Of a DNA stretch of 64,000 nt, positions 6,339 through 42,277 are shown piece by piece. Source of the DNA: an uncultured Candidatus Saccharibacteria bacterium (lineage in GTDB: Bacteria > Patescibacteriota > Minisyncoccia > Phycocordibacterales > EsbW-18); NCBI GenBank assembly GCA_964447415.1, contig CAYUSN010000001.1:121727-185726 (forward strand). The letters run 5' to 3'. Below the pieces are notes generated by a model. The model ran no database searches. It was not told the origin of the DNA and saw only the letters and a program-made list of their open reading frames with translations. Within the stretch, counting starts at the first letter, position 1; every line of letters starts with the position of its first letter. The position numbers were made by a program, and so were the translations under genes.

Positions 6339-8540
6339 ATGAAAAAATATTTTAAACTGCCGATACTCACCGCAACCCTTGTACTTCTGGGTTTTTCTCT
6401 GTTTCCGAACGCCGCACAGGCAATGTGTGATCCGCTGTATGGAGACGGTGAACGAAATCCGCGTATTGATAACCCAGGCTCTGTTTCTCTGAGTGCCGAC
6501 CAAAACACGCTGAACGTCTCAGGTGCCATGTGGTACCCAGGAGCTCTTTGCCCCGATCCATCGGCGGAAAAAGAGGGGCAGATGGACAGTTTTGTTCAAG
6601 GGGCGTCTCCCTCAATAGTGGGACCGTCTCAAAATAGGACAACAGCGGGACCACACACATACTCAGGTTCTCTCAATGTTTCTGCATTGCCCAACGGTAC
6701 GTATACACTCACGCTCGTTGTCGACAGTATTTTCGGTGTTCCCGGCGAGGATTTTGCGTATCACCAATTTACTATTACAAACCGCAATCCGCTGACAGTT
6801 GGTTCCTGTTCAGGAAGTCCGAACCCGGCGACAACAGGCTCCTCAATGACGTGGTCAGTTCCTGTTCCGACAGGAGGAACGGGGAGCTACACGTATTCGT
6901 GGAGCGGGACGGACAGCCTGGGCGGTACTACGCGCACGGTCAACAAAACATATACAACGACCGGAACAAAAAACGCATCGGTTGTCGTGACGTCAGGCGC
7001 GGAGCAGGTTACGAAAAACTGCAGTATTACCGTGAATGCACCAGCAAGCAATCCGACATGTTTGCCTAGTCCATCCACGGTAACAACAGGACAAACAACA
7101 AGTATCTCCGCTTCAGGTGGCAGTGGCGGTACATCACCGTATTACACTTGGAATACAGATGGCGGTTCATCGTGTGCGGCGGGAACACCGTGTAGCACAT
7201 CGTGGACGACGACGGGCACAAAGAACGTGACCGTAACACGCAACGGTGTAACATCGCCGTCTTGTCCGGTGACGGTGGGTCCGCCTACCAACTACACACT
7301 GACCATCAATAAAGTCGCTGATCCGATTACAGGTGACGGAACAGACTACGCCAATGTCACCAGTGTTAGTCCCGACGGTCAGATTTCGTGCTCGGGAACA
7401 TGTAATACAGATACGGGCTCGTATGCTGCAAGTACTGTGATAAATACTAATACGTCAATCACTTCACCGGGAACATGGGTGGGTCTCGGTGCGGGTTCTG
7501 ATGCAGCATGTGGTGATCCGATGACGATGCCGGCGCGTAACGTGACGTGCAATATGGTATTCGGACTTGAAACTCCTCCTGATGACGATGACGACCCGCC
7601 GACGGGTATCGCATGTAGCGGTCCGGCAAACGTTGCGCAGGGCGATGAGGCGACATTTACCGTGTCGGGCGGCTCATCTCCGTACTCATGGTCATCAACG
7701 GGAAATCCGGGCAGCGGTTCGGGAACAAGCTACACTACCAGTTGGGGATCGCTTGGCACAAAAACCGTGACGGTCTCCGGTGGCGGAAGTGATACCTGTT
7801 CTATCTGTGTCGGCGCGTTTGGTTCGTGCGATGAACCTAATCCACCACCGACCGCAACGGTTCATATCAACGGATTTTTAACACCGCAAAACATTACTGC
7901 AGGACAATCGGCGACGGTGGGTTGGTCATCCACAAATGCGGCAGGGTGCAGGCTAACATCTTCTCCGGTTGATTCCGGTTGGAATGAGCTAGTCGCTGGA
8001 ACAAGTGGTTCGAAAGTACGGTCTCCTTCGGCAACAACTATATACACCGCACGCTGTACGGGGCTTGGCGGCTCTGCGTCAGATTCAAACACACTCAACG
8101 TCACTTCGTCTCCGCTTTCCTGCGACCCTCCGGTACAGGGGACGTATCTCAACACAAATGCAACAGTCAATGCGTCGGGTGGTACCGGGAGCTACACGTG
8201 GAATACGGGCGGCGGCACAACATGTCTTCCCGGTTCATCGTGTACAACACAGTATTCAACAACGGGTGCCAAGACGGTAACACTCTCTGACGGGTCGGGA
8301 GTCGCATACTGCACCATTAACGTTACCGTGCCCCCTGCTGCTCTGACGTGTGCTCCAACGACGCAGGAAATTGCGCCTGGCGCAACGGCAAACTTCACCG
8401 GCTCCGGAGGATCCGGAGGTCCGTACTCGTGGTCCGCTCCGGGCGGCACTCCGTCAACCGGAATAGGCACAATTTTTGCATCTCTCTTTAGTACAGCCGG
8501 AACGTACTACGTGACGGTAAGCGAAAGTGCATCCGATTAA
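6339..8540 (+). CDS. Large secreted repeat protein with PKD-like repeats and a divergent InlB B-repeat-like domain.
   Basis: Signal peptide. Repeated ~75-aa Cys-bracketed T/S/G-rich modules (…YTWS..GG…TGTKTVTV…). A ~95-aa module (NYTLTINKVADPITGDG…ARNVTCNMVFGL) is shared with the next gene. Confidence 0.75.
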   Translation: MKKYFKLPILTATLVLLGFSLFPNAAQAMCDPLYGDGERNPRIDNPGSVSLSADQNTLNVSGAMWYPGALCPDPSAEKEGQMDSFVQGASPSIVGPSQNRTTAGPHTYSGSLNVSALPNGTYTLTLVVDSIFGVPGEDFAYHQFTITNRNPLTVGSCSGSPNPATTGSSMTWSVPVPTGGTGSYTYSWSGTDSLGGTTRTVNKTYTTTGTKNASVVVTSGAEQVTKNCSITVNAPASNPTCLPSPSTVTTGQTTSISASGGSGGTSPYYTWNTDGGSSCAAGTPCSTSWTTTGTKNVTVTRNGVTSPSCPVTVGPPTNYTLTINKVADPITGDGTDYANVTSVSPDGQISCSGTCNTDTGSYAASTVINTNTSITSPGTWVGLGAGSDAACGDPMTMPARNVTCNMVFGLETPPDDDDDPPTGIACSGPANVAQGDEATFTVSGGSSPYSWSSTGNPGSGSGTSYTTSWGSLGTKTVTVSGGGSDTCSICVGAFGSCDEPNPPPTATVHINGFLTPQNITAGQSATVGWSSTNAAGCRLTSSPVDSGWNELVAGTSGSKVRSPSATTIYTARCTGLGGSASDSNTLNVTSSPLSCDPPVQGTYLNTNATVNASGGTGSYTWNTGGGTTCLPGSSCTTQYSTTGAKTVTLSDGSGVAYCTINVTVPPAALTCAPTTQEIAPGATANFTGSGGSGGPYSWSAPGGTPSTGIGTIFASLFSTAGTYYVTVSESASD

Positions 8541-8550
8541 TTCCACCATT

Positions 8551-11500
8551 ATGAATACACACAAAAAAATCTTTCTCGGACTTCTGGTGGCGGCTGTGCT
8601 CATTCTTCCATCGTCTGCGTTTGCACTCATGCCGTATGGCGAGGGTGATGAACCGCCGAACAATGAACCGCCGGGAAATCCGTGTTCCCTGAACTCACCC
8701 AGTATTACAACAGGCGGTATTACAATTACCGGCTCAACAGCGAGAGGAACATTCACAAACACCTCTGCGGACTGTACCTACAAAATCGGCATTGCGTCGT
8801 ACAAAATCAACGACCAACTCTCTGATTACACTGAGTTTATCAACGCACAGGTGCTGAATGATTCCGATTACACGACAGTCGGTCCCGGTGCATCGGTTGA
8901 AGTTTCAGCATCTATTCCGTCGTGTGACTATCAGGTTGACCTGTATGCGTACAAGGGGACAAACAACGTGCCGATACCGCCGGATTTCTGGTATGCGTTG
9001 AGCACAACACATCGATTGTTTGATTACCAAATGACGGGGGCGCTCGTATCCTGTTTTCGCCCGACGTGTTCGGCAAGTCCGTCGACGGTTGCGCCGAACA
9101 CGAACACTACACTTACCGGATCAGGGGGTTCTGCAGGGTATCCCTACACATGGTCTGGAGGAGGAACTCCGGCGACAGGGTCCGGCACCACATGGGCGAC
9201 ACAGTGGGCAAATCCGGGCACGAAGACAGTAACGGTGACGCGCGCAGGACAGTCAAATACCTGTCAGGTAACTGTTGGCGGTGATTGTGACTACCAATGT
9301 ACGCTCGGTATTACGCCGTCTTCTGGTGCCCCCGGAGCGAGCTTTACCTTCAACGTACAGGCGACGGGCGATAACGGATATTGTTCCGGTGCAGGCACGA
9401 ACAGAAAGTTTTACATTGATTACACCAATGATGGCACCTATGACGCGACAACGCCGTGGACGGGGTGTTACGAAAGTACATGTAAAGACGGTGCATGGAC
9501 AAGCGCACCGTACTCCTCGCCAGGTTCATACACCGCAAAGGGAAAGATGGATTGGCAGAACAATCCGAACGGAACGGTGACACGCACGTGTACCGCACCG
9601 GTGACAATCTCATCAACATCGTACACGCTGACCATAAACAAGGTTGCCGATCCTGTTACGGGTGACGGTACCAATTACGCTGACGTGACGAGTGTGGACG
9701 GGCAGATTTCCTGTTTAGGGGCGTGCAATACCGATACCGGTTCGTACGCTGCCGGTGCCACAATAGATACGATTACGACGATTACGCCGCCCGGAACGTG
9801 GGTGGGACTTGGAGCCGGTTCGGATCCCGCATGCGCCGATCCGATGACAATGCCGGCACGCAACGTGACGTGCAACATGGTGTTCGGACTCTCTCAGGCG
9901 CCTGTTTGCTCTCCTGCAACGCAGACGGTGACGACGGGACAGCAGGCGAGCTTCACGGCGTCAGCGGGGACCGGCACATACTCGTGGTCAGGCGGAGGGA
10001 CACCTTCAACAGGCTCCGGAGCTTCATGGTCAACAACGTACAGTACGACAGGAACGAAAACAGTGACAGTAAACAGCGGAGGACTGATTGACACCTGTTC
10101 GGTGACGGTGACCACGGTCCCGCCGACCAACTACACACTCACTGTTACGAAAGCGGGTACCGGTTCAGGTACGGTGACCAGCAGTCCGGCAGGAATTTCT
10201 TGCGGTGCTGACTGTACTGAAAGTTATTCCAGCGGAACATCGGTAACCATGACGCCGACGCCTGCTGCGGGGTCAACGTTTGCGGGATGGAGCGGCACCG
10301 GTTGTACGACAGGGACCGTGTCGATGACTACAAACAGAAACTGTACGGCAACGTTCAATGCTTCGGTAACCAACTACACACTCACTGTTACAAAAGCAGG
10401 CACAGGCTCAGGTACGGTGACGGCACCTGCAGGCACAGGCGACGGAATTTCCTGCGGTACCAACTGCACGGAGGCCTACGGAAGCGGCACACCGGTCACG
10501 ATGACGCCGACAGCGACACTGGGGTCAACCTTTGCGGGATGGAGCGGGCTCGGTTGTACAACCGGAACGGTCACCATGAGCGCAAACAGAACCTGTACGG
10601 CAACATTCAACCTATCTCAACTCTCGTGTGCGGCGGTATCACCCGACGTTGTGGTGGGTGATTATGCGAGATTCAACGCATCCGGCGGAACCGGCTCTTA
10701 CTCATGGTCGGGAGGGGGAATACCTGCGACAGGAAACAGTAATCCGTTTGTTACACAGTACACCAGCACAGGATTGAAAACAGTGACGGTGACAAGCGGA
10801 ACACAAAATGCGCAGTGCTCAGTCAATATCATTCCCGTACCCGCATCGGTGTGTCAGGTAAACGTGGCAGATGTCTGCGGACAAATCCGCGTGACCTCAA
10901 ACATCGGTACGACGTGGAGAATCACGGGTGCAGACGGAAAAATAATTGATCAAACAGAAGACGCAGGTACCACGCCTGTCGTCTACGACAAAACGGTCTG
11001 CGGTATGTACTCCATCACTAACATTCCTGAACGCGCCGGCACTGCTCCGGTGGTGTCTCCCGCCGACTCAGGCGATCTGGTGCAGGGAGGTGTGCTTGAA
11101 TTCAACATCAACTACGCGGCACCGGTTGACCTCAAGGCCAACGGAAAAGACAGCGGTGTGGAAGTGGTTCAAGGGACTCCGGCATATCTGACCTGGACAA
11201 CAACGGAAACAATTGAACCGGGCTCATGTGTTGCCTCAAACGACCGGAATCAGCCATCGTGGGATGGATCAAAGGCCGACAAAGGAGAACAGAACTCCGA
11301 TCCGATAGATGCAAAAACAATCTTCACGCTTACGTGTTACAACGCAAAAGGCGCAGAGTTCTCCGATTCTGTTGACGTCAGTCCACGCCCGCCGGTGTGT
11401 AACAACGACAAAGATGATGACTTTGACGGGTTCTTTGACTGGGACGGTGCAGGAATAACGGAACCGGACCCAGGGTGTGACGGTAATCCTACTAAAGACA

Positions 11501-11796
11501 GCGAAGACAATGCACCGGAATGCAGTGACGGCATAAACAACGATACGGAGGATGAAGATATCGATTATCCGGCAGATATCGGCTGTGAAGATCGTGATGA
11601 CAACGACGAGTCAAACGCGTCCACTATCGTCACGGACTGTAACGACGGTCTCAACAACGACGGAGACACAAACGAGAAGGGGGTTGAGATGGTTGACCAC
11701 GAGTCAGTGACGCCGACGGGGTACGTTCCTGATCCGGGATGCACAAGCGTGCTTGACCCGAGTGAGGTCGAAGATCCCGACATCCGCGAAATCTAG
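8551..11796 (+). CDS. Large secreted repeat protein: PKD-like modules, two InlB B-repeat-like domains and an acidic Cys-rich calcium-binding-like C-terminus.
   Basis: Signal peptide MNTHKKIFLGLLVAAVLILPSSAFA. Two near-identical YTLTVTKAGTGSGTV…FAGWSG.GCTTGTV…CTATF domains. C-terminal CxDGxNND/DxD repeats. Start at 8551; the longer ORF reaches 8527. Confidence 0.75.
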   Translation: MNTHKKIFLGLLVAAVLILPSSAFALMPYGEGDEPPNNEPPGNPCSLNSPSITTGGITITGSTARGTFTNTSADCTYKIGIASYKINDQLSDYTEFINAQVLNDSDYTTVGPGASVEVSASIPSCDYQVDLYAYKGTNNVPIPPDFWYALSTTHRLFDYQMTGALVSCFRPTCSASPSTVAPNTNTTLTGSGGSAGYPYTWSGGGTPATGSGTTWATQWANPGTKTVTVTRAGQSNTCQVTVGGDCDYQCTLGITPSSGAPGASFTFNVQATGDNGYCSGAGTNRKFYIDYTNDGTYDATTPWTGCYESTCKDGAWTSAPYSSPGSYTAKGKMDWQNNPNGTVTRTCTAPVTISSTSYTLTINKVADPVTGDGTNYADVTSVDGQISCLGACNTDTGSYAAGATIDTITTITPPGTWVGLGAGSDPACADPMTMPARNVTCNMVFGLSQAPVCSPATQTVTTGQQASFTASAGTGTYSWSGGGTPSTGSGASWSTTYSTTGTKTVTVNSGGLIDTCSVTVTTVPPTNYTLTVTKAGTGSGTVTSSPAGISCGADCTESYSSGTSVTMTPTPAAGSTFAGWSGTGCTTGTVSMTTNRNCTATFNASVTNYTLTVTKAGTGSGTVTAPAGTGDGISCGTNCTEAYGSGTPVTMTPTATLGSTFAGWSGLGCTTGTVTMSANRTCTATFNLSQLSCAAVSPDVVVGDYARFNASGGTGSYSWSGGGIPATGNSNPFVTQYTSTGLKTVTVTSGTQNAQCSVNIIPVPASVCQVNVADVCGQIRVTSNIGTTWRITGADGKIIDQTEDAGTTPVVYDKTVCGMYSITNIPERAGTAPVVSPADSGDLVQGGVLEFNINYAAPVDLKANGKDSGVEVVQGTPAYLTWTTTETIEPGSCVASNDRNQPSWDGSKADKGEQNSDPIDAKTIFTLTCYNAKGAEFSDSVDVSPRPPVCNNDKDDDFDGFFDWDGAGITEPDPGCDGNPTKDSEDNAPECSDGINNDTEDEDIDYPADIGCEDRDDNDESNASTIVTDCNDGLNNDGDTNEKGVEMVDHESVTPTGYVPDPGCTSVLDPSEVEDPDIREI

Positions 11797-11980: not shown

Positions 11981-12278
11981 TCCAGCACTTAACTTTGTCT
12001 TGCTAGTGTGAGCGCGTGATCTACGTATACGTGCTACAAAACAAGTCTGGCGAGCTGTACATCGGGTCAACAAACAATCTAAAGCGAAGAATGTTTGAGC
12101 ACGAGAAAGGTCTATCGGCTTCAACAAAACACACTTCGTGGAAGTTGGTGTATTACGAGACGTATATTTCCAGTGTTGATGGGCGAGAGCGCGAGCATCA
12201 ACTGAAATATCACGGACAGGCGAAACGTCATTTAAAGAATCGGCTCAAACATTCTTTAAGACAAAGTTAAGTGCCGGA
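11981..12278. mobile_element. Hairpin element, copy B. A 21-bp inverted repeat (TCCAGCACTTAACTTTGTCTT / AAGACAAAGTTAAGTGCCGGA, one mismatch) encloses the whole GIY-YIG ORF.
   Basis: The arms bracket 12016-12270, and the right arm overlaps the stop codon. Same conserved tips as copies A, C and D. Confidence 0.5.
12016..12270 (+). CDS. Small GIY-YIG nuclease family protein (UPF0213/YhbQ-like), 84 aa.
   Basis: N-terminal (V)IYVYVL…GELYIGSTNNLKRR…EH motif matches the GIY-YIG fold. GTG start. Confidence 0.7.
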   Translation: MIYVYVLQNKSGELYIGSTNNLKRRMFEHEKGLSASTKHTSWKLVYYETYISSVDGREREHQLKYHGQAKRHLKNRLKHSLRQS

Positions 12279-12297
12279 TGAATTTAAGAAAAACACT

Positions 12298-12804
12298 ATG
12301 GCAGTTACACGGCAGAAAAAAGAGGCGACGCTTGAAAAGCTTCAGAGCATTTTCAAGAACGCCGCAACCGCGGTCTTCGTGAATTTTCACGGACTGACGG
12401 TTTCCGATGTCTCCGACGTGCGTCGCACACTCAAAGGTGAGGGTATCGGCTACATGGTTGCAAAAAAAACGCTCATCAAAAAAGCGTTGCCGACGTCCGG
12501 TGCAGAAGGCGAGATGCCCTCACTTGACGGTGAAGTCGCCGTTGCGCACATTCCCGGAGGCGACGGAGCGGATATCACGGCTCCTGCGCGCGGCATTCAC
12601 GCATTTGCGAAGAAATTCGAAAACCGCATCGCGATTCTCGGAGGCATCTTCGGAGGCAAACTTCTCAACCGAGAAGAAATGCTTGAGATTGCGACCATTC
12701 CGTCTATGCACACGCTGCAGGGGATGTTCGTCAACGTCATCAGCGCGCCCATTCAGGGTTTTGTGGTGGCGCTTCAGGCAATTGCGGACAAGAAAAGCAA
12801 TTAA
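12298..12804 (+). CDS. rplJ: 50S ribosomal protein L10.
   Basis: L10 conservation (…VNFHGLTVSDVSDVRRTL…). ATG at 12298 preferred over the in-frame GTG at 12271, which lies inside the repeat arm. Confidence 0.85.
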   Translation: MAVTRQKKEATLEKLQSIFKNAATAVFVNFHGLTVSDVSDVRRTLKGEGIGYMVAKKTLIKKALPTSGAEGEMPSLDGEVAVAHIPGGDGADITAPARGIHAFAKKFENRIAILGGIFGGKLLNREEMLEIATIPSMHTLQGMFVNVISAPIQGFVVALQAIADKKSN

Positions 12805-12805
12805 T

Positions 12806-12935
12806 AAAAAAGCACGAAGCACGAAATACGAATCTCGAAACAAACTCGAAATCAGAAATTCTAATGTTTAAAACATTCAGGTTTCGAAATTAGATATTGT
12901 TTCGGATTTCGACATTCGGATTTCGAAATTAACTC
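12806..12935. repeat. ~125-bp palindromic intergenic repeat, copy 1, between rplJ and rplL.
   Basis: Left half AAGCACGAA…CGAAATACGAATCTCGAAACAAA pairs with right half TTTGTTTCGGATTTCGACATTCGGATTTCGAAATT. Apex palindrome AATGTTTAAAACATT at 12863-12877. Confidence 0.7.
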
Positions 12936-12942
12936 AAAAACT

Positions 12943-13356
12943 ATGTCAGATGAAGCAACAGTACAGGCGGGAGCGGACGAGAAGGTAGAAGTTCCCGCGC
13001 AATTCAAGGATTTGGTTTCAAAAATCGAAACCATGTCAGTGATTGAACTCAACGAGCTCGTCAAAGTGCTCGAGAAAAAATTCGGCGTCTCGGCGGTTGC
13101 AGCAGCGGCAGCACCTGCCGCAGCAGCGGCAGGCGAGGAAGAGAAGTCGGAGTACACCGTTGAGCTTACGTCAGTTGGCGACAACAAAATCGCCGTCATC
13201 AAGGCGGTGAAGGAAGTCTCGGGTCTCGGCCTCAAGGAGGCAAAAGATCTCGTTGACGGCGCACCGGGCGTCATCAAAGAGGCGGTCAAGAAAGAAGACG
13301 CCGAGGTGATGAAGAAAAAAATCGAGGAAGCAGGTGGCAAAGTGACTCTTAAATAG
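12943..13356 (+). CDS. rplL: 50S ribosomal protein L7/L12.
   Basis: Typical L7/L12: an N-terminal helix, an Ala-rich hinge and a C-terminal domain (…[11 protein letters not shown]…). Confidence 0.9.
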
Positions 13357-13393
13357 AGTCACTTTGATCCGGAACCTCCCTATCCCCAACATG

Positions 13394-13436
13394 GAGAAAA
13401 CACCCCCCCCCTGCACAGGGGGGGGGGTGTTTTCTG
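13394..13436 (+). terminator. Intrinsic terminator with a homopolymeric stem: AAAACAC-C9-tgcaca-G10-TGTTTT.
   Basis: A C9 run and a G10 run form the stem, with an A tract before and a T tract after. Confidence 0.6.
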
Positions 13437-13472
13437 TTATCATGTATTCACATCTATTCATAAACTCTGCAT

Positions 13473-15476
13473 ATGATATATAAGAAACATCTCTTCCTCG
13501 TACTTGCGTCACTCATGTTGGCAACCCCCGTGTCTGCAGCAACCGTGCCGGTGTTTGATTGGGTTGCTGCACGAACCGACTCACTTATTGGTCTTCAGGG
13601 AGGATTCAGTGTGGCCTACACACCAGCAGTTGATTCGGCTGATGGCAGTATCTACATCTCGAATTTTTTTACAGGGACACCTGATTTTGACCCTGGAGCA
13701 GGAACGGATTCCATTGCTTCAAATGGAGAGGAGGATAACTTCCTCTCCAAGTTTGATTCGAATGGCGCATACCTATGGACAAAAACATGGGGGGGCACGG
13801 GAAGAGAGCGCACGCTAGGAGCCACAGTTGATGGCAACGGAAACGTCTATAGTGTGGGCACATTTTCAAGCACGGTTGATTTTGATCCAGGAGCTGGGAC
13901 ATTCTTTGCTACATCAACAGGCGGTACTGATAACTTTGTTTCAAAATTTGATTCCGATGGAAACTTTATTTGGGCAAAGACGTGGGGGAATGCAAGCAAC
14001 CAAAACACCCTCCGAATGGTTACAACAAACGATACAGGAGATGTTTTTGTGCACGGACACTTTACAGGTACGGTTGATTTTGATCCGAGCGCTGGAACGG
14101 CATTTGCAACATCAACGGCAGGGAATGATATTTTTCTTTCAAAATTTGACTCGGATGGAAACTTTGAGTGGGTGAAAGCGTGGGGAGGGACAGGGGACGA
14201 CGGTTCATCGGGAGTTAAAATTGCGAATGACGGAGCGCTCTTCTTTACAGGTATTTTTACGAACACAATTGATCTTGATCCAAGCGTGGCTACTGCCTCA
14301 TCAACATCAGCAGGAAGTTATGATAGATATTTTTTGAAACTTTCTACAACAGGTGATCTTGTGTATGCAAAAACATGGGGAGGAACCGGATTTGATTCTG
14401 CCGGGGAACTTCAGTTTGGGAATGGTGATGCGGTGTATGTTTTTGGAGGATTTTCAAGCACGGTTGATTTTGATCCAGGTCCTGGCGAGGCGTTTGCGAC
14501 ATCAACAGGAGGTTTGGACGCATACTTTTCAAAATTTGATGCTGATGGAAATTTCGAATGGGTAAAAACATGGGGAGGCTCGGGGACCGACGTTGCTGTT
14601 AACGCGGTTGTGAATGAAAACACCCTTACTGTTGTTGGATATTTTTCAAGCACGGTTGATTTTGATCCAAGCGCCGGAACTGACTCAAAAGTATCTGTAG
14701 GAGGACTTGATGTGGCCATCTCTACATACTCACCAGATGGAACATATATCCGTACGGACACATTCGGTGGTTCGCTCGACGATTTTCTTGATTCGTTACC
14801 ACAGGGCGTGGCCTTTGGTTCGGACACGCTCGTTCTCGCAGCCTATTACAAAAGCGCACCCGCCGATTTCGATCCAGGTCCTGGAGTTTCGTCTGCATCA
14901 TCAAATGGAACATCGCTCTACATTTCTTCCCTCAACCTCGTTGAAGCTTCAGTCGGAGTCTCCCCGACATCAGGTACTGCCGAAGAGGGGGGTGATACGC
15001 TCACCTACGATATTGTGCTCAATGCTCCGCCGACTGATGACGTCGTCATCACTGTTACCCCCGACAGCCAACTCTCAGTTTCCACAACAACACTCACGTT
15101 CGCCTCAACCACATGGGACACACCGCAGACAGTGACGGTCACCGCGGTTGACGATGAGGAAAACGAAGATGACCCGCACACCGGCGTTGTGACGCACACT
15201 GCGGCCTCAGACGATGCATTGTATGACGGCATTACCGTCGGAAGCGTGACCGTGTCAATTGATGAAAACGATTCATCCGGTGGCGGTGGCTCCTCGCGTA
15301 GTACCCGCGCCATTCAGGCACTCACCGACACCGAGCCCGAAACACTTCCGCCTGCAGTACCGTTGACACCCGAGCAGGTGCAGGAGGCAATAGTCAAGGT
15401 GAAACAACAACTCATCATCGTTATCCAACAGCTTATCGTGCTGCTACAGGAAGAGATTGCAAAACTCTCCAGATAG
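13473..15476 (+). CDS. Secreted SBBP-type beta-propeller repeat protein with a Calx-beta/cadherin-like beta-sandwich and a conserved C-terminal motif. Paralog 1 of 3.
   Basis: Signal peptide MIYKKHLFLVLASLMLATPVSA. About 8 repeats of the form …VDFDPxxGTxxATSxGGxDxFxSKFDSDGxFEWVKTWGG…. C-terminal …SSGGGGSSRS…QQLIIVIQQLIVLLQEEIAKLSR. Confidence 0.75.
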   Translation: MIYKKHLFLVLASLMLATPVSAATVPVFDWVAARTDSLIGLQGGFSVAYTPAVDSADGSIYISNFFTGTPDFDPGAGTDSIASNGEEDNFLSKFDSNGAYLWTKTWGGTGRERTLGATVDGNGNVYSVGTFSSTVDFDPGAGTFFATSTGGTDNFVSKFDSDGNFIWAKTWGNASNQNTLRMVTTNDTGDVFVHGHFTGTVDFDPSAGTAFATSTAGNDIFLSKFDSDGNFEWVKAWGGTGDDGSSGVKIANDGALFFTGIFTNTIDLDPSVATASSTSAGSYDRYFLKLSTTGDLVYAKTWGGTGFDSAGELQFGNGDAVYVFGGFSSTVDFDPGPGEAFATSTGGLDAYFSKFDADGNFEWVKTWGGSGTDVAVNAVVNENTLTVVGYFSSTVDFDPSAGTDSKVSVGGLDVAISTYSPDGTYIRTDTFGGSLDDFLDSLPQGVAFGSDTLVLAAYYKSAPADFDPGPGVSSASSNGTSLYISSLNLVEASVGVSPTSGTAEEGGDTLTYDIVLNAPPTDDVVITVTPDSQLSVSTTTLTFASTTWDTPQTVTVTAVDDEENEDDPHTGVVTHTAASDDALYDGITVGSVTVSIDENDSSGGGGSSRSTRAIQALTDTEPETLPPAVPLTPEQVQEAIVKVKQQLIIVIQQLIVLLQEEIAKLSR

Positions 15477-15504
15477 ACCGGAACTTAAAAATCAACTACC
15501 CCAT

Positions 15505-17484
15505 ATGACATATAAAAAACATCCCTTTCTCGTACTTGCGTCACTCATGTTGGCAACCCCCGTGTCTGCAGCAACCGTGCCGGTGTTTGATTGGGTGAAT
15601 ACGTGGGGAGGAACAGGGAGTGATTCCGGTTCGAACGTTGTTTTTGACGGAGATGAAAATATCTATACCGTTGGTCGTTTTAATGTAACTACCGACTTTG
15701 ATTCCAGTGCAGGTACCGCATATGCGACATCAAGTGGTGAGGGAGACGCTTACTTATTAAAATCAGATCCAAATGGAATCTTTGAGCTGGTAAAAACATG
15801 GGGTGGTAGTGGTGATGACACTGCTAGTTTGGTTAGTTCTGACGGACTAGGTGGGCTTGTTGCATCCGGACGATTCTCAAACACCGTTGACCTAGACCCT
15901 GACGTAGGCACTGTGTTTGCAACATCAAGTGGCGGATATGATATGTATCTTTCCAGATTTGATACGGACGGTGTGCTTGAATGGTCGGGTGTCTGGGGTA
16001 GTACAGGCAGTGATGTCGGTGCGTTTGTTGTCCCCACTTTCAGTGACGCTGTTTATGTTATGTCTAACTTTGCCGGCGTCATTGATTTTGACCCTGGTGT
16101 AGATACTGCCTTTGCGACATCAAGTGGTGGATTTGACATGGCCCTTTCCAGGTTTAACTCAGACGGCATTTTTGAATGGGTGAAGACATGGGGAGGAACA
16201 GGCAACGAAATTCTGGGGGGCAGTTCATCGGTGGGACTTGACGGGGTGGGAGGAGTGTACGTTCTCGGTAATTTTAGTGGTACGGTTGATTTTGATCCCA
16301 GTGTCAGCACCACTTATGCAACCTCAAGCGGATCAGCGGATGCTTTTGTGTCTAAGTTTGACTCGGACGGTACGTTTGAATGGGTGAAAACGTGGGGAGG
16401 AACAGGGAGTGATGGGGCGCGCGGGGTGTTTTTCGATGACGAAGATAATATCTATATGATTGGTTCTTTTGCGAACACCGTCGACTTTGACCCTAGTGCA
16501 GGTACCGCGTATGCAACCTCAAGCGGAAACGCTGATGCTTCACTCTCCAAATTTGACTCAGAAGGTACATTTGAGTGGGTGAAGGCGTGGGGCGGAACAG
16601 GTAATGAGTTTGTAGAAAACGGTGCGGTTAATGAGGGTGATGTCTATGTATTTGGTTCTTTTGCGAACACGGTTGACTTTGATCCGAGCGCCAGCACCGC
16701 CTTTGCAACTTCAAACGGATCAGACGACGCCTTCGTGTCTAGGTTTAACTCGGAGGGTACGTTTGAATGGGTGAAGACATGGGGAGGAACCTCATCAGAC
16801 ACCTCCAAACATATGAATTTTCTCGATGGAAAAGCATTTATAAGCGGTACTTTTCAAAACACCGCCGACTTTGATTTCTCTCTCGGAACAGAAAACCGAA
16901 CATCGGCCGGTTCCGGTGATGTGTATCTCCTTGTCCTCAACCTCCTCGAACCCGCCGTCACCGTTTCTCCAACCTCGGACAGTTTAGACGAAGCAGGTGC
17001 CGGCACTTTTGACTACGACCTCGTGCTTGCAACGCCGCCCGAGAACGACGTCGTTATCACCATCACTCCTGATGTACAGGTGTCTGTGTCCACCACGTCA
17101 CTCACCTTCGCTTCAACCACATGGGACATTGCACAGACAGTGACGGTGAGTGTTGTTGACGATGAGGAGAACGAAGACGATCCGCACACCGGCGTCATAA
17201 CGCACACCGCAGTATCAGATGATGCGGCATATGACGGTATTACTATCAGCAGTGTGACGGTGTCAATTAACGAGAACGACTCGTCCGGCGGCGGTTCTTC
17301 ACGAAGCAGTGTGCGCGCTGTTCAGGCAATCACCGATGTTGAACCCGAGACACCCCCGCCCGCAGTACCGCTGACGCCTGAGCAAGTACAGGAGGCGATA
17401 GACAAGGTGAAACAACAGCTTGTGGCCGTTCTTCAACAGCTTATCGTGCTGCTACAGGAAGAGATTGCAAAACTCTCCAGATAG
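15505..17484 (+). CDS. Secreted SBBP-type beta-propeller repeat protein, paralog 2 of 3.
   Basis: Signal peptide and C-terminal motif identical to paralog 1. Start MTYKKH at 15505. Confidence 0.75.
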   Translation: MTYKKHPFLVLASLMLATPVSAATVPVFDWVNTWGGTGSDSGSNVVFDGDENIYTVGRFNVTTDFDSSAGTAYATSSGEGDAYLLKSDPNGIFELVKTWGGSGDDTASLVSSDGLGGLVASGRFSNTVDLDPDVGTVFATSSGGYDMYLSRFDTDGVLEWSGVWGSTGSDVGAFVVPTFSDAVYVMSNFAGVIDFDPGVDTAFATSSGGFDMALSRFNSDGIFEWVKTWGGTGNEILGGSSSVGLDGVGGVYVLGNFSGTVDFDPSVSTTYATSSGSADAFVSKFDSDGTFEWVKTWGGTGSDGARGVFFDDEDNIYMIGSFANTVDFDPSAGTAYATSSGNADASLSKFDSEGTFEWVKAWGGTGNEFVENGAVNEGDVYVFGSFANTVDFDPSASTAFATSNGSDDAFVSRFNSEGTFEWVKTWGGTSSDTSKHMNFLDGKAFISGTFQNTADFDFSLGTENRTSAGSGDVYLLVLNLLEPAVTVSPTSDSLDEAGAGTFDYDLVLATPPENDVVITITPDVQVSVSTTSLTFASTTWDIAQTVTVSVVDDEENEDDPHTGVITHTAVSDDAAYDGITISSVTVSINENDSSGGGSSRSSVRAVQAITDVEPETPPPAVPLTPEQVQEAIDKVKQQLVAVLQQLIVLLQEEIAKLSR

Positions 17485-17512
17485 ACCGGAACTTAAAAAT
17501 CAACTACCCCAT

Positions 17513-19522
17513 ATGACATATAAAAAACATCCCTTTCTCGTACTTGCGTCACTCATGTTGGCAACCCCCGTGTCTGCAGCAACCGTGCCGGTGTTTGATT
17601 GGGTAAACGGAGGGGACAGTTCTCTGATAAATACTACCATCGGTGGTTCCGCCCAAGTGTATAAAGTTGAAGTTGATACAAACGACGGGAGTATCTATGT
17701 TTCCGGACAGTTCACCGGCACACCCGATTTTGATCCGTCGGGCGATACGGACGAAATTGCTTCGGCGGGCGACAGAGACGCCTTTCTTTCTAAATTTGAT
17801 GCGGACGGCGGATATCTTTGGACGAAAACGTGGGGTTCAACCGCAGCTGACATTATTCGTGATGCGCTTGCCGTAGACACGAACAGCGACGTCTACGTTG
17901 CAGGTTCGTTCAGAGGAACGGTTGATTTTGATCCAGGTCCTGGCGAGGCGTTTGCGACATCAACAGGACAGAACGATGTGTTTTTCCTTAAACTTAATTC
18001 CGACGGAGAATTTGTGTGGCTCAAAACATGGGGCAAAACAGGATCAGAAACAGGATTCCCGTTTGATATAGAGGAAGCAACGGACGGGGGGGTTTTTGTA
18101 TACGGCGGATTTGACGGAACGGTTGATTTTGATCCAGGTCCTGGCGAGGTGTTTGCCACATCAACAGGAAGTGTTGATTTTGTGCTTTCAAAATTTGATG
18201 CAGACGGTACGTTTCAGTGGGTGAAAACATGGGGAAGCACCGGTTTTGATAGCGCGACATCCCTACATGAGGGTGAAGACGGATCGGTGTATCTTATGGG
18301 CCTATACGCTGGTACGACGGACTTTGATCCCGGCGCGGGCGTTGTATCGGTCGGGACAAACGGCGGTTCCGATGCGTTTGTTCTCAAACTTGATACGGAC
18401 GGATTGTTCCAATGGGTTCGTGTATGGGGGGGAGCTTCTACCGACGTCGCATACAGCGCAAACACCGACTCTACAGGCGGTTTGTATGTAGCGGGTTATT
18501 TTCAGGGCACTGCAGACTTAAATCCAACTGACGGTACAGCGACCACAACATCTGCAGGAGGCACAGACGCACTTCTCATGAAACTCGATTCAGACGGCAA
18601 TTTTGAGTGGGTGAAGACGTGGGGGAGCACGGGGTCGGACGATGTTCGTAAAACGGTTTTCTTTGACGACGGGTATCTTGTTCTTGGTAGGTTTTCGGAA
18701 ACCGTCGATTTTGATCCTGATGCCGGAGTAGATGAGAAGGTGGCGGCTGGTTCGGACGTGTCAATGTCTCTTTTCAATTTGAATGACGAGTATATACGCA
18801 CCGACACGTTCGGCGGGGCGCTTGATGAGTGGGTAGACAACGCTCCTGACAATAATTTGTCTTCGGGTAAGGCTCTTTTCGGCGGTTTTCACAAATCAGA
18901 TCCTGCCGATTTTGACCCGTCGGGGAAGGTGGCAGAACACTCAGGCGGTGGGGTGGATACAATGTATGTTGTCTCCTTCACCATGACGGAGCCGGCTGTC
19001 ACCATCACCGCATCCGACACAACGGCGTCCGAGGCGGGCGACACGGCGGCGTATTCCGTAGTCCTCACCGCGCCTCCGCATGAGGACGTCGTTGTTACTC
19101 TTACACCTGACAACCAGCTTTCTGTTTCTACCACTTCACTTACGTTCACGTCTGCAACGTGGGACATGCCGCAGACAGTGACGGTTACCGCAGTTGACGA
19201 TGAGGAAAACGAAAATGACCCGCACACCGGCGTCGTGACGCACACTGCGGCCTCAGACGATGTGTTGTATGACGGCATCACCGTCGGAAGCGTGACCGTG
19301 TCAATTGATGAAAACGATTCATCCAGCAGCAGCTCCTCGCGTAGTGCCCGTGCTATTCAGGCGATTACCGGCGCTGGGCCCGAAACACCTCTACAAACGG
19401 CACCGCTGACGCCCGAGCAAGTGCAGGAGGCAATAGTCAAGGTGAAACAACAACTCATCATCGTTATCCAACAGCTTATCGTGCTGCTACAGGAAGAGAT
19501 TGCAAGGCTTTCTGTCCAATAG
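17513..19522 (+). CDS. Secreted SBBP-type beta-propeller repeat protein, paralog 3 of 3.
   Basis: Same N-terminus and C-terminal motif. Start MTYKKH at 17513. Confidence 0.75.
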   Translation: MTYKKHPFLVLASLMLATPVSAATVPVFDWVNGGDSSLINTTIGGSAQVYKVEVDTNDGSIYVSGQFTGTPDFDPSGDTDEIASAGDRDAFLSKFDADGGYLWTKTWGSTAADIIRDALAVDTNSDVYVAGSFRGTVDFDPGPGEAFATSTGQNDVFFLKLNSDGEFVWLKTWGKTGSETGFPFDIEEATDGGVFVYGGFDGTVDFDPGPGEVFATSTGSVDFVLSKFDADGTFQWVKTWGSTGFDSATSLHEGEDGSVYLMGLYAGTTDFDPGAGVVSVGTNGGSDAFVLKLDTDGLFQWVRVWGGASTDVAYSANTDSTGGLYVAGYFQGTADLNPTDGTATTTSAGGTDALLMKLDSDGNFEWVKTWGSTGSDDVRKTVFFDDGYLVLGRFSETVDFDPDAGVDEKVAAGSDVSMSLFNLNDEYIRTDTFGGALDEWVDNAPDNNLSSGKALFGGFHKSDPADFDPSGKVAEHSGGGVDTMYVVSFTMTEPAVTITASDTTASEAGDTAAYSVVLTAPPHEDVVVTLTPDNQLSVSTTSLTFTSATWDMPQTVTVTAVDDEENENDPHTGVVTHTAASDDVLYDGITVGSVTVSIDENDSSSSSSSRSARAIQAITGAGPETPLQTAPLTPEQVQEAIVKVKQQLIIVIQQLIVLLQEEIARLSVQ

Positions 19523-19545
19523 AACTTCTTACACAAACCCGCAAA

Positions 19546-19576
19546 AAACACCCCACAAAGGGGTGTTTTTGTTTTA
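19546..19576 (+). terminator. Intrinsic terminator (AAAACACCCC-acaaa-GGGGTGTTTT then TGTTTT).
   Basis: Hairpin plus U tract after the third paralog. Confidence 0.6.
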
Positions 19577-19604
19577 ATGAAGAATGCGTCTATAATCGGG
19601 GTGT

Positions 19605-20162
19605 ATGGATTTGCTTGCAAAACTGTTCGGGGATGTAACGCTCGTACGCCTGATGCGCTTTTTCCTGTTTCACCCCGACGGCGTCTTTACCTCACAAGCG
19701 CTCTCGGAACACCTGCATACTCCGATACGCGCGCTTACCGGACCGCTCTCATGGCTGAAATCAGCCGGGTTTGCAAAAAAACGCGCGAAGGGATGGACAC
19801 TCGACCCCGCGTTCCCGCACATGGTATCTCTGCGCGAGTTATTACTCGGCAACATGCTTGCGGACGTCTCCATCGAGGACCGTATTGCCCGCGCCGGCGC
19901 CGTGAAGCTCATCGTTGCCTCGGGTATTTTCGTGGAAGGGGACACTGATACACGAACGGACGTGCTCATCGTCGCCGACCGGCTCAATGAACGGGCGCTC
20001 AAGCGCGCAGTGGCGGGTATTGAGGCCGACTGCGGGACGGACATCCGCTATGTGGCACTTTCAACGAAAGATTTCCGGTATCGCATGGATATGAACGATC
20101 GTTTGCTCCGTGATGTCTTCGACTATCCGCACCGGAAACTGGTCAATAAACTCGGTGTATAG
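19605..20162 (+). CDS. Hypothetical protein, 185 aa. Possible N-terminal winged helix and a nucleotidyltransferase-like C-terminal segment.
   Basis: ORF with balanced composition. GIFVEGDTDTRTDVLIVAD resembles a Pol-beta nucleotidyltransferase motif only weakly. Confidence 0.45.
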   Translation: MDLLAKLFGDVTLVRLMRFFLFHPDGVFTSQALSEHLHTPIRALTGPLSWLKSAGFAKKRAKGWTLDPAFPHMVSLRELLLGNMLADVSIEDRIARAGAVKLIVASGIFVEGDTDTRTDVLIVADRLNERALKRAVAGIEADCGTDIRYVALSTKDFRYRMDMNDRLLRDVFDYPHRKLVNKLGV

Positions 20163-23887: not shown

Positions 23888-23920
23888 CAAAAAACCACCC
23901 TACGAGGGGTGGCTTTTTGT
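23888..23920 (+). terminator. Intrinsic terminator (AAAAACCACCC-tacga-GGGGTGGCTTTTTGTT).
   Basis: Hairpin plus T tract directly after rpsJ. Confidence 0.55.
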
Positions 23921-23982
23921 TATGCACACGGAAGAAAAAATCGTTGCCAGGTGATTTTGAGGAAGTGCTATACTTACGGGAT

Positions 23983-26574
23983 ATGAAGTCATCACTATTT
24001 TTTATGCGGTTGGGAGTTATTTCAACCTCCGTAGTATTTTCACTTTTTTGTGTTGGTGTTTCTCATGCACAGGCAGCAACACTGTATTTTAATGGTGTAG
24101 TGAATTCAAATTGGAATACGTTGGGTAACTGGTGGACAGATGTAGGGTTCTCTGCGCCAGCAGGGAGTCTTCCAGGCGTGGGTGATGATGTGATTATTTC
24201 TGCTGACGTACTTTCAAATAGCGGTCCTGCGGCATCTGTAAACAGCATGCTGGTGAGTGGCCCCGCTGTTATAGGAATACCGGTAACCGTTGCAGTAGAT
24301 GCATCGTTTCATGACTCAAGCTCGCTCCGTAACCTTGTTATTGGTGACGCATGTTTTGCAACAACTGCAACAAACGGGCCGCGGTTTTTCGCAGGCCTGG
24401 GCCAGAGCAACAGGTCTTGGAGTAACTTTGCGGCGGCACCAAACGGTGATGTATATGGTGTTACGACTACTAATAATGAAATTTACAAACAAACAGGTGG
24501 TACGGGAGACTTTGTTGATTTGGGTATATTTATCTCCGGTGCATTTAGTATCGGCGTTGCACCAAATGGTAATGTGTATGCGGGCTCATACGGTGGTGAT
24601 ATGTATATGCAGACAGGGGGTGTGGGTAGCTTTGACGCTCTCAATCAAACTTTCAGAAATTGGTTAGGTATCACGGTGGCTCCAAACGGGGATGTATACG
24701 CCACGGGCTTTAACGAGGACATCTACAAACAAACATCTGGCGTGGGTGATTTTGTAGCTCTCGGACAGACTGTTCGTTCTTGGCAAACAATGGCGGCTGC
24801 ACCAAATGGTAATATTTATGCAATTGCAAATGATAATAAAATATACAAACAAACCTCCGGCATGGGAGATTTTGTTGATATAGGCGCACCAGTCAAATCG
24901 TGGTCTGGTATCACTATTGCTGCAAATGGGGACGTATATGCAAGTGTGTTTAACGGTGATATTTACGTACAATCAGGTGGTACTGGTGACTTCAATGCTC
25001 TCGGAGAAACATCGAGGAATTGGAGAGGTATGACAGTTGTCCCGAACGGTAACATTTATACTGGTGTTGTGGGTGGAGATGTATACATGCAGGATAATAG
25101 TGGTACAGTCACGGGGGCTACTACTGTTTGTTCCGCAGCGCTTCCTGTGGTCACGACATCAGCAACAACGTTGGGGATAAGTGGATCCACCTCACTGCTT
25201 TTAGGATCGATTGATGATACTGGTGGGGAAAGTATAAGTACACGGGGTTTTGAATACGGCCTGACAGAAAGTTATGGAGCCGCAACGTCTGAATCAGGGG
25301 TTTTTAACTCTGGCTCCTATAGTTTTTTTGCGGAGAACTTAACATGTGGCAGCGCCTATCATTTTCGAGCATTTGCTACGAATGGGGTAGGAACTGCTTA
25401 CGGTGCGGATGAAACATTTACCACACCAGCCTGTTCATCGGACAGCACTCTTTATGGCATTGATGGTTCGGGTAGTAATTCTGATGACCCACAACTGTAT
25501 GTGCTTGACCCTCTTACGGGTCTGAAGATAGAAACAATTGGACCGGTTGGTTTCTATGTCACCGGAATGGCATTTGACCCTACAACGGGTATTTTGTATG
25601 GAAGTACGGGAGGAAGTGGAATTAATTCAAAAAGTTTGATTACCATAAATACAGAGACAGGAAACGGAACATATCTTGGTGCTATTAAGAATGCGGGAAA
25701 TACATCACTGAATATGCCAGATATCACCTTCCGTTCAGATGGTAGATTATACGGATGGTATGGAAATGATAGTAGTCTCTACACAATCGATTTGACTTCT
25801 TGTGATGGAGTTGATGTCTCCTGTCTCGCAACAAAAGTTGGAGATTCGGGCTTAAGTAGCAACGGTGGCAACGGGCTCGCATTTGATAGTAATGATACCT
25901 TATTTCAATTTGGGAATTATGACGATAGTTATTATCAGATAAATCCAGACACTGGGGAGTCCGTTGCCGAATTCTCATTTACAAATCCTACTGGGGATAG
26001 TCATCCTATAGCGGCAGCCTCTTTCAATCAAAGTGACACTCTCTATCTTTCTCGGTTGTATTACGGAAGCCCAGGAGATTTAGTGATAGTTAACACCGAT
26101 ACGTATGAAATATTTTCTACAGGTGAGAATAATGATGAGATGGCTTACATGGACGCAATTGCGTTTTATATTCCTCCCGACACCACCGCCCCTGTCATCA
26201 CTATTCTCGGCGACAATCCAACCACTATCACCGTTGGTGATACATACACCGACGCAGGAGCAACAGCAGAAGATGATACCGACGGTGATATTACTGGAGA
26301 CATTGTGACAACCAACAACGTCAACGCTGCAGTTGCCGGTACGTACACGGTTGTCTATGATGTATCTGACACGGCACTCAATACTGCATCTGCAGAACGA
26401 ACGGTTATTGTGAATGAAGAAGAATCGAGTGGTGGAGGAAGTAGCAGACGCCGTGACGTTGCCGACGAACCCGTTAATTCTTCACCTACAACTCAAACAC
26501 CACTCGAGCAGCTTCTACTGGAACTCATTGAAGCACTCAAACTGCTCATTGCTGAGTTGATGAAAACACGGTAA
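23983..26574 (+). CDS. Large secreted protein: ~45-aa beta-propeller-type repeats, an FN3-like domain, a second propeller-like region, a bacterial Ig-like (DUF5011-type) domain and the shared C-terminal motif.
   Basis: Signal peptide MKSSLFFMRLGVISTSVVFSLFCVGVSHAQA. Repeats of the form …APNG(D/N)VYA…DIYKQTSG.GDFV.LG…. C-terminal …SSGGGSSRRR…LLELIEALKLLIAELMKTR. Confidence 0.7.
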   Translation: MKSSLFFMRLGVISTSVVFSLFCVGVSHAQAATLYFNGVVNSNWNTLGNWWTDVGFSAPAGSLPGVGDDVIISADVLSNSGPAASVNSMLVSGPAVIGIPVTVAVDASFHDSSSLRNLVIGDACFATTATNGPRFFAGLGQSNRSWSNFAAAPNGDVYGVTTTNNEIYKQTGGTGDFVDLGIFISGAFSIGVAPNGNVYAGSYGGDMYMQTGGVGSFDALNQTFRNWLGITVAPNGDVYATGFNEDIYKQTSGVGDFVALGQTVRSWQTMAAAPNGNIYAIANDNKIYKQTSGMGDFVDIGAPVKSWSGITIAANGDVYASVFNGDIYVQSGGTGDFNALGETSRNWRGMTVVPNGNIYTGVVGGDVYMQDNSGTVTGATTVCSAALPVVTTSATTLGISGSTSLLLGSIDDTGGESISTRGFEYGLTESYGAATSESGVFNSGSYSFFAENLTCGSAYHFRAFATNGVGTAYGADETFTTPACSSDSTLYGIDGSGSNSDDPQLYVLDPLTGLKIETIGPVGFYVTGMAFDPTTGILYGSTGGSGINSKSLITINTETGNGTYLGAIKNAGNTSLNMPDITFRSDGRLYGWYGNDSSLYTIDLTSCDGVDVSCLATKVGDSGLSSNGGNGLAFDSNDTLFQFGNYDDSYYQINPDTGESVAEFSFTNPTGDSHPIAAASFNQSDTLYLSRLYYGSPGDLVIVNTDTYEIFSTGENNDEMAYMDAIAFYIPPDTTAPVITILGDNPTTITVGDTYTDAGATAEDDTDGDITGDIVTTNNVNAAVAGTYTVVYDVSDTALNTASAERTVIVNEEESSGGGSSRRRDVADEPVNSSPTTQTPLEQLLLELIEALKLLIAELMKTR

Positions 26575-42224: not shown

Positions 42225-42277
42225 GAATAGCACATATACTCCTACATTCTGTGTGTTTCAGTTGCTATACTATTCGT

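Follow-up and report, generated by a model that had tools for sequence, protein, structure and literature searches.

A tandem array of three beta-propeller protein genes with identical junctions and divergent propellers in an uncultured Patescibacteria genome

The array and its predicted products

The window analysed here (64,000 nucleotides (nt) of an uncultured Candidatus Saccharibacteria bacterium, contig CAYUSN010000001.1, positions 121,727 to 185,726) contains a tandem array of three intact open reading frames (ORFs), g1, g2 and g3. All three lie on the + strand, are bounded by the rplL terminator on one side and by another strong terminator on the other, and encode proteins with a signal peptide, a beta-propeller and a common C-terminal part. 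The two junctions of the array, J1 between g1 and g2 and J2 between g2 and g3, are identical in sequence, and the propeller-coding middles of the genes are divergent (Table 1). Loci in related genomes that were used for comparison are designated L001, L003, L004 and L008.

No terminator-like or promoter-like site of a quality comparable to the end terminators was found in J1 or J2. Since terminators were detected at the ends of the array and nothing comparable at the junctions, a single transcript is likely, and g1, g2 and g3 probably constitute one operon. The spacers lack a Shine-Dalgarno motif, but this is uninformative because the motif is not used in this genome, not even by tuf and rplL. 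The GC content across the array (0.47-0.55) is not distinctive, and scans of the window for tRNA genes and Rfam families gave no match.

An AlphaFold2 model of the g1 protein, built on an alignment of 15 family members, had a mean predicted local distance difference test score of 81 and a predicted template modelling score of 0.75. The model consists of a propeller of seven four-stranded blades (residues 24-490), a beta-sandwich (494-597), a disordered segment rich in glycine, serine and proline (601-630) and a helix (633-666). The best match of this fold in the PDB was the propeller of CylK (7fh6, 7ron; Foldseek E 1e-15, TM score 0.5 over approximately 470 columns, 19-20% identity), followed by the propellers of integrin alpha-chains with their adjoining immunoglobulin-like (Ig-like) domain. 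CylK is a Friedel-Crafts alkylating enzyme with an N-terminal calcium-binding domain. Its likeness to g1 is one of fold only, and at this level of comparison there was no sign that its active site is conserved in g1-g3. The spacing of the blade repeats in the DNA (192-204 nt), the model and the leading PDB matches, which have seven blades themselves, agree on a multi-bladed propeller with repeats of approximately 60-65 residues.

The original prediction had called these proteins SBBP beta-propellers, and this label was sustained by relationship rather than by the Pfam domain itself. The Pfam SBBP model PF06739 matched g2 and g3 with E-values of only 1.8 and 0.37 and did not match g1. No protein attained the gathering score (20.5 bits), because the repeats are too divergent for this 38-residue model. 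However, the NCBIfam model NF047494 ('SBBP repeat beta-propeller lipoprotein') matched the three proteins with E-values of 5.7e-22, 9.6e-20 and 2.7e-23, and among the top 120 homologues, whether of g2 or of the g1 propeller, the majority have PF06739 and several bear the name 'SBBP repeat-containing protein'. In all, homologues with PF06739 number in the hundreds. The label 'SBBP-type propeller' therefore appears justified by homology and by the modelled fold. Membership in the Leptospira LipL53 family, for which NF047494 is an equivalog model, is not indicated: the scores were 70.7-82.4 bits against a cut-off of 400 bits. Moreover, inspection of the N-terminus MIYKKHLFLVLASLMLATPVSAATVP revealed no lipobox cysteine. 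It reads as a classical Sec signal of the signal peptidase I type (KK-hydrophobic-VSA/A), which is likely cleaved after VSA, at residue 22.

SBBP proteins of Bacteroidota and other phyla have homologous propellers (30-45% identity, E-values down to 1e-180, a period of approximately 65 amino acids (aa)). Those of Bacteroidota usually end in a type IX secretion system sorting domain (PF18962), whereas g1-g3 end in the beta-sandwich, a glycine/serine linker and a heptad helix. Neither the isolated beta-sandwich nor the tail had a match in Pfam, and the tail had none in NCBIfam either. Among homologues of the C-terminal region, one (P0127) has a Calx-beta domain (PF03160). A search with the C-terminal module alone returned only 9 short matches, and a search of metagenome contigs with the C-terminal 175 aa returned one distant relative (31% identity). 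In a library of 1.8 billion proteins the beta-sandwich unit was found repeated up to 55 times in giant proteins of more than 7,000 aa. We read the beta-sandwich as a putative stalk domain.

The tail follows the order glycine/serine run, SSR, linker, amphipathic helix, and the helix of one family member runs on into what resembles a peptidoglycan-binding domain. Similar tails were seen on unrelated proteins. One is an 885-aa surface protein encoded elsewhere in the window, which has propeller-like repeats and an Ig-like domain (PF16403) and ends in SSGGGSSRRR, a linker and then PLEQLLLELIEALKLLIAELMKTR. Another is an FG-GAP protein whose gene (12054-14222) adjoins the SBBP gene in L008. These tails suggest a module of anchoring or oligomerisation that may be lineage-wide. 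As judged from the domain architecture, g1-g3 may act as adhesins or surface antigens. A literature search for SBBP proteins or propellers in Patescibacteria gave only papers on host-side proteins or pili, which were not relevant.

Identity of the gene ends and divergence of the propellers

The array had been predicted to contain two identical junctions of about 160 bp, at 15440-15600 and 17440-17600, each joining the 3' end of one gene, across a spacer of 28 nt, to the signal-peptide sequence of the next. The tandem arrangement, the identity and the composition (measured here as 51 + 28 + 92 nt) all proved correct, and only the length was slightly underestimated: when the match was extended in both directions, J1 and J2 were found to be the same over 171 nt without a single difference. 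The first 92 nt of g1 differ from the two internal heads at 4 positions, all of them in the first 24 nt. A core of 68 nt is thus exact in all three genes (13497-13564, 15529-15596 and 17537-17604), with no such match expected from 100 shuffles. At the other end of the genes, a 35-nt stretch of the helix-coding sequence is exact in g1, g2 and g3.

Divergence along the genes was far from uniform. In a codon alignment, nucleotide identity was 93-100% in codons 1-30, approximately 30-70% in the propeller and 70-100% in the last 130 or so codons, i.e. high at both ends and low in the middle. At the protein level the three propellers are 39-46% identical. The longest identical coding runs (68, 85 and 92 nt) were not reached in any of 10,000 permutations in which the positions of the differences were shuffled; the largest permuted runs measured 28-34 nt. 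The exact runs shared by g1 and g3 were 85, 45 and 28 nt long.

Synonymous sites gave the same picture. In the propeller they are saturated (proportion of synonymous differences, pS, 0.74-0.79), whereas the number of synonymous substitutions per synonymous site (dS) was lowest in the signal-peptide head (0.04-0.14), followed by the helix (0.22-0.60) and the beta-sandwich (0.7-2.2). The low dS values in the head and helix tracts exclude constraint at the protein level as the sole cause of the identity.

The 3' end of g1 is a chimera. Phylogenetically informative sites group g1 with g3 nearly throughout alignment positions 1681-1830 and 1921-1975 (approximate limits), and over roughly the final 40 nt they group g1 with g2. 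Correspondingly, g1 equals g3 exactly over 85 nt (15378-15462 = 19421-19505) and equals g2 exactly from 15426 through the spacer, which places the crossover inside 15426-15462, a segment of 37 nt common to all three genes. The last 17 or so nt of g3 differ from both g1 and g2. The homogenised part extends beyond the junction and is patchier: approximately 440 nt of the 3' end, coding for beta-sandwich, linker and helix, form a mosaic in which g1 mostly equals g3. Within the propellers, an exact match of 51 nt connects blade 5 of g1 (14460-14510) with blade 2 of g3 (17918-17968). This out-of-register match looks like a short patch of ectopic conversion.

Table 1. Coordinates of the array, its parts and neighbouring genes in the window
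Feature	Coordinates	Strand	Description
Two large secreted-looking proteins	6339-11796	+	733 aa (PKD domains) and 1089 aa; just 5' of rplJ
GIY-YIG-like ORF	12016-12270	+	84 aa; immediately 5' of rplJ
Terminator 3' of rplL	13395-13435	+	intrinsic; 17-nt perfect arms, C9/G9 stem, T tract; upstream limit of the transcription unit of the array
125-nt block	13419-13543	+	runs from the 3' arm of the terminator through the presumed promoter and 5' untranslated region into g1 (first 71 nt); exactly equal to L001 9905-10029
g1	13473-15476	+	667 aa; signal peptide, seven-bladed SBBP-type propeller, beta-sandwich, glycine/serine/proline linker, heptad helix
g1 head	13473-13564	+	signal peptide MIYKKHLFLVLASLMLATPVSA/A (slash, likely cleavage site) plus TVPVFDWV
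g1 propeller cassette	13542-14942	+	residues 24-490; seven blades, each some 65 aa long
g1 beta-sandwich (putative stalk)	14952-15263	+	residues 494-597; Calx-beta-like
g1 C-terminal helix	15369-15470	+	residues 633-666; amphipathic heptads QQLIIVI/QQLIVLL/QEEIAKL
Junction J1	15426-15596	+	last 51 nt of g1 with stop codon, 28-nt spacer, first 92 nt of g2; equal to J2
Spacer g1/g2	15477-15504		28 nt
g2	15505-17484	+	659 aa; architecture as g1; start at the ATG aligning with the g1 start
Junction J2	17434-17604	+	last 51 nt of g2, 28-nt spacer, first 92 nt of g3; equal to J1
Spacer g2/g3	17485-17512		28 nt
g3	17513-19522	+	669 aa; architecture as g1
Terminator 3' of g3	19544-19570	+	intrinsic
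185-aa ORF	19605-20162	+	directly 3' of the array; no Pfam match
885-aa surface protein	23917-26574	+	propeller-like repeats, PF16403; tail similar to g1-g3
928-aa protein	42251-45037	+	HerA/TraG/TrwB-like ATPase signatures

Relatives of the array in other genomes

The array lies among the genes rplJ, rplL, tuf, rpsJ and rplC, and those relatives that carry a name are called 'Patescibacteria group bacterium' or 'Candidatus Paceibacterota'. Both observations indicate an organism of the Patescibacteria (CPR). In these relatives the syntenic site lies 5' of a conserved ORF of 185-188 aa, a gene for an MscS-like protein and tuf. The copy number of the SBBP gene at this site varies: three in the window, two in L003 and one each in L001, L004 and L008, the last of these together with the FG-GAP protein with the similar tail. 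A seeming second tandem ORF in L002 was rejected after translation, which revealed a frame mis-called across the intergenic stretch and the 187-aa ORF that follows, identical to L001. The signal peptides, upstream regions and spacers (66-105 nt) used for this protein family in L003, L004 and L008 are entirely different from those of the window. Among the retrieved loci, an exact 32-nt signal-peptide pattern was found in L001 only, and it gave no match in metagenome contigs and none in viral contigs.

The domains of the 15 family members were compared separately, by identity tables and by neighbour-joining trees without bootstrap. The propeller of g2 is 83% identical (aa) to that of L001, and 43% and 39% identical to those of g1 and g3, respectively. 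The order is reversed in the other domains. In the beta-sandwich, g2 and L001 are 56% identical, and the paralogues in the window 65-77% (g1-g2 73%, g1-g3 77%, g2-g3 65%), with tracts in which g1 equals g3 dominating the g1 region. In the tail the corresponding values are 27% and 71-82% (g1-g2 82%). The g1 propeller is nearer to those of L003_b, P0043 and P0054 (52-54%) than to those of g2 and g3 (43-46%). For the g3 propeller no close relative was found in public data, where the best full-length match was 47% identical. The two-copy array of L003 follows the same pattern, its copies being 81% identical in the tail, 72% in the sandwich and 53% in the propeller, and the promoter regions 5' of its two copies are almost identical.

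The ends thus group by genome and the propellers by type, with large differences in identity, which indicates that the constant parts evolve in concert while the cassettes they enclose are old. In these comparisons each propeller middle is closer to genes of other genomes than to its neighbours, and the middles are old or imported, heterologous cassettes. From the similarities of g2 to L001 and of g1 to L003_b, P0043 and P0054, the three propeller types are older than the split of these genomes. Together with the collapse of dS at the ends, the identical spacers and the chimeric 3' end of g1, the discordant domain trees support the earlier suggestion that the junctions were homogenised by recombination or gene conversion.

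A further member of the family, P0043, is dispersed: its gene lies between a bPH_2 gene and the gene of RNase R in L090 (10001-12043; GCA_034680565.1, contig JAXOUH010012728), a locus from the metagenome assembly that also contains the L003 array. The beta-sandwich of P0043 is 92% identical to that of L003_a, and its propeller is 56-66% identical to the propellers of the L003 copies. If L090 and L003 come from the same organism, homogenisation would reach non-tandem copies as well.

The comparison with L001 also bears on exchange between genomes. For housekeeping genes (rplJ, rplL, tuf, rpsJ, rplB and the gene of the MscS-like protein) dS between the window and L001 was 1.25-1.76. For g2 versus L001 it was approximately 0.2-0.26 in the head, 0.47 in codons 32-480 and 2.24 from codon 481 onwards, the similarity dropping abruptly near codon 480, which is the boundary between propeller and stalk. 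In addition, the 125-nt block that runs from the terminator into g1 is exactly the same in L001 (Table 1). Just 5' of this block, at about 9820-9842 and approximately 60 nt past its own rplL stop codon, L001 has an orphan copy of the last 8 or so rplL codons. The orphan resembles the rplL end of the window more than that of L001 itself, which suggests an imported segment. Because the g2-type propeller and the 125-nt block are far closer than the housekeeping genes, an exchange between the lineages is indicated, and we infer that recombination carried two segments between the lineages of the window and L001, first the g2-type propeller and more recently the head block.

Strain-level relatives were absent from the collections searched. 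The three proteins each formed a singleton cluster, on a single contig, and no strain variants were on record when g1, g2, EF-Tu and P0001 were looked up by exact sequence. When genome contigs were searched with the family alignment, the matches were confined to the broad SBBP family of many phyla and did not exceed 43% identity.

Some features of the surroundings may be added. The 185-aa ORF directly 3' of the array has a counterpart (185-188 aa) in the same place in L001, L003, L004 and L008, whatever the SBBP copy number. Genes for surface proteins are interspersed in the rplJ-rplL ... tuf-rpsJ ribosomal neighbourhood in the window and in the relatives alike. Of the two large proteins encoded just 5' of rplJ in the window, the 733-aa one has PKD domains and the 1089-aa one has InlB B-repeat-like domains and a very acidic C-terminus. 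The small GIY-YIG-like ORF immediately 5' of rplJ is also present at this place in L001 (72 aa, weak PF01541). Further downstream, an 861-aa ORF without clear domains precedes the gene of a 928-aa protein that resembles coupling proteins of type IV secretion. By its signatures, this protein may be part of an apparatus of DNA transfer or uptake, which would be relevant to the movement of cassettes between cells.

Origin of the array and its meaning

The explanation we favour, with a probability of roughly three in four, is that g1-g2-g3 is an operon of secreted, probably cell-surface proteins, whose constant ends were homogenised by recombination between the tandem copies and whose propeller heads are old and exchangeable. 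Homologous recombination of the RecA type between the constant segments, by unequal crossing-over, gene conversion and possibly excision and re-integration of circles, would homogenise the ends and alter the number of cassettes. The most recent event left the two identical 171-nt junctions. Older events produced the patchwork of g1 = g3 and g1 = g2 tracts over the last 440 or so nt and, as it seems, the 51-nt patch. The conserved ends could further act as portable homology arms, by which cassettes are gained, lost or replaced, and after uptake of DNA they could serve the import of a cassette. Such a role would explain why the relatives have one, two or three copies at the site. It would also explain why a g2-type propeller is common to the window and L001 at approximately one third of the synonymous distance of housekeeping genes, and why an identical 125-nt promoter and signal-peptide block is preceded in L001 by an orphan rplL end. 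The propeller would be the variable, presumably ligand-binding head, and the C-terminal helix would presumably anchor or oligomerise the protein. From this architecture, the array could present a set of different binding heads, all carried by the same type of stalk and anchor, e.g. for attachment to a host cell or a substrate in an episymbiotic bacterium.

Several points weigh against this explanation. The identity of the beta-sandwich can partly be ascribed to ordinary protein-level constraint, since dS is still 0.7-2.2 there. Only the g2-type cassette has a close relative, and exchange between lineages depends on a single pair of genomes. Ongoing gain and loss of cassettes is deduced from comparison at the species level only, as the collections searched contain no strain-level relatives. 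Surface location, anchoring by the helix and binding are predicted roles, and the tail is not covered by a Pfam or NCBIfam model. Finally, the order and copy number of the array are those given by the assembly, and any present-day rearrangement would be a prediction.

One alternative is an assembly artefact, in which strain alleles of one hypervariable gene were stitched together, or a repeat was collapsed or polished to a consensus. The contig (306 kb) is evidently derived from a metagenome, its proteins are singletons, an exact repeat of 171 nt exceeds the usual k-mers of assemblers, the close relative L001 has a single gene at the site, and sequence alone cannot fix the copy number of the middle unit. 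However, the stop-spacer-start sequence differs from the region upstream of g1 and from that downstream of g3. Reads leading from a tail into a head must therefore exist, and at least one tandem junction is real. Given a single flank at the start, a single flank at the end and two repeats, we reason that g1-J-g2-J-g3 is the sole linear path through all three gene bodies. Moreover, the independent assembly of L003 also has a tandem pair at this site, and mosaic tracts of 85-95% identity outside the exact repeat cannot come from collapse. We therefore consider an artefact improbable.

The same low probability is assigned to a dedicated system of programmed variation, in which, in place of passive homologous recombination, a specific recombinase would excise and re-integrate circles at the junction or switch an expression site. 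Conserved junctions around whole cassettes, variable copy number and a cassette exchanged between genomes are traces that such a system is expected to leave. However, each copy in the operon is a complete gene, from its start codon and signal peptide to its stop codon, and no silent or truncated cassettes were seen; silent, truncated, promoterless donors of the Anaplasma msp2/p44, Borrelia vlsE or Neisseria pilE/pilS type are thus not represented among these three full-length ORFs. The tract boundaries are scattered instead of marking a single fixed site. The only inverted repeat of at least 16 nt in 13300-19700 was the rplL terminator, and no recombinase or reverse transcriptase was noticed beside the array in the window, L001, L003, L004 and L008, although not all ORFs of the window were scanned. 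A shufflon or other site-specific inversion finds no counterpart either, as the copies are co-oriented, there are no flanking inverted repeats, and no recombinase was noticed among the neighbours in these five loci, again short of an exhaustive scan of the ORFs of the window. A diversity-generating retroelement was also rejected, as there was no pair of template and variable repeats and the differences were not confined to a short C-terminal stretch, with no search made specifically for a reverse transcriptase.

It is still less probable that the identity of the junctions reflects selection on the nucleotide sequence, for RNA structure, translational coupling or an internal promoter. Extreme constraint could in principle account for the 125 identical nt of head and upstream region in L001, and in genes that are probably co-transcribed the spacer could matter for translation. 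However, the 171 nt of J1/J2 did not fold better than shuffled sequences (z = +1.55; 189 of 200 shuffles folded at least as well) and have no Rfam match. They contain no promoter-like or terminator-like site, and in a genome that does not use Shine-Dalgarno motifs there is no such element to preserve. The divergent signal peptides, spacers and upstream regions of L003, L004 and L008 and the lack of RNA structure, Rfam matches and inverted repeats make nucleotide-level constraint a poor explanation, which in addition leaves the chimeric 3' end of g1 and the discordance of the domain trees unaccounted for.

Taken literally, the original prediction of a triplication with diversified middles would mean a recent tandem triplication followed by fast diversifying selection on the blades, with the junctions as a remnant of the original identity. 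This is the least probable of all: ligands are likely bound by the blades, and rapid evolution is common in regions with such a role, but saturation of the synonymous sites in the propellers cannot be produced by selection on the protein, the nonsynonymous rate (dN) is below dS wherever dS is measurable, and the propellers of g1 and g2 have nearer relatives in other genomes than in the array.

Beyond the favoured explanation lies a bolder version of it, in which the junction is a functional 'cassette port': heads with their stalks would leave as circles, through recombination of one junction with another, and re-insert at the same port, be it in the same genome or, once the DNA has been taken up, in other Patescibacteria lineages. 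We consider this unlikely, if less so than the alternatives above. Were it true, populations of these host-dependent bacteria would exchange and rearrange the heads that bind hosts, while the anchor would stay specific to the lineage, and the locus would be a fast-changing determinant of host range that crosses species boundaries.

The process proposed for the array is already well documented in pathogens, and no new mechanism is involved. Mosaic surface-protein paralogues with constant ends that undergo gene conversion are textbook knowledge there, Anaplasma msp2 included. The systems that come closest are the bab genes of Helicobacter pylori and the lpl cluster of Staphylococcus aureus. The surface paralogues babA, babB and babC have near-identical 5' and 3' ends and divergent middles, and conversion between them creates chimeras and changes the expressed head. 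They are located at dispersed loci, encode outer-membrane beta-barrel adhesins and switch by repeat slippage, none of which was seen in the g1-g3 array. For the tandem lpl paralogues a recombination model has been put forward, in which a conserved segment is the site of homologous recombination and the outcomes are duplication, deletion, apparent conversion, excision and re-integration of circles, and recombination following horizontal transfer (Tsuru and Kobayashi 2008, PMC2568036). The array shares with lpl the tandem arrangement of secreted-protein paralogues, the alternation of conserved DNA with variable segments and the incongruent phylogenies of the segments. It differs by a shift of half a period: the conserved segment of lpl lies in the middle of the ORF, whereas in the g1-g3 array it extends across the gene boundary, and variation is confined to a unit in mid-ORF. 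Furthermore, lpl was analysed in more than 10 strains of one species, and here one genome of the species was available.

Nearly invariant 5' regions (promoter or untranslated region plus signal peptide) and a hypervariable middle are also characteristic of the vsp, vlp and vsa lipoproteins of mycoplasmas. The MASP proteins of Trypanosoma cruzi are described as having nearly invariant 5' regions and invariant C-termini around a hypervariable middle (PMC2691823). The proteins of these two groups are lipoproteins or anchored by glycosylphosphatidylinositol, have repetitive, low-complexity middles and often vary by site-specific inversion or phase variation. By contrast, the middle of g1-g3 is a predicted folded propeller of seven blades, and neither a lipobox nor an invertible element was found. 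What is new here is the group of organisms, the protein family, and the clean breakpoints at domain boundaries combined with a cassette that occurs across species.

Patescibacteria, also known as the candidate phyla radiation (CPR), are mostly uncultured and have small genomes. Those that have been cultivated live attached to other microbes, and how they recognise their partners is largely unknown. The locus described here, situated in a highly expressed neighbourhood of ribosomal protein genes, is a concrete candidate for a variable module of attachment or recognition. Its candidacy rests on the one to three different heads on a shared stalk and anchor, on the homogenisation within the genome and on at least one cassette common to both sides of a deep species split. 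The identical tail-spacer-signal-peptide junctions flanking divergent middles provide a signature by which more such loci may be searched for.

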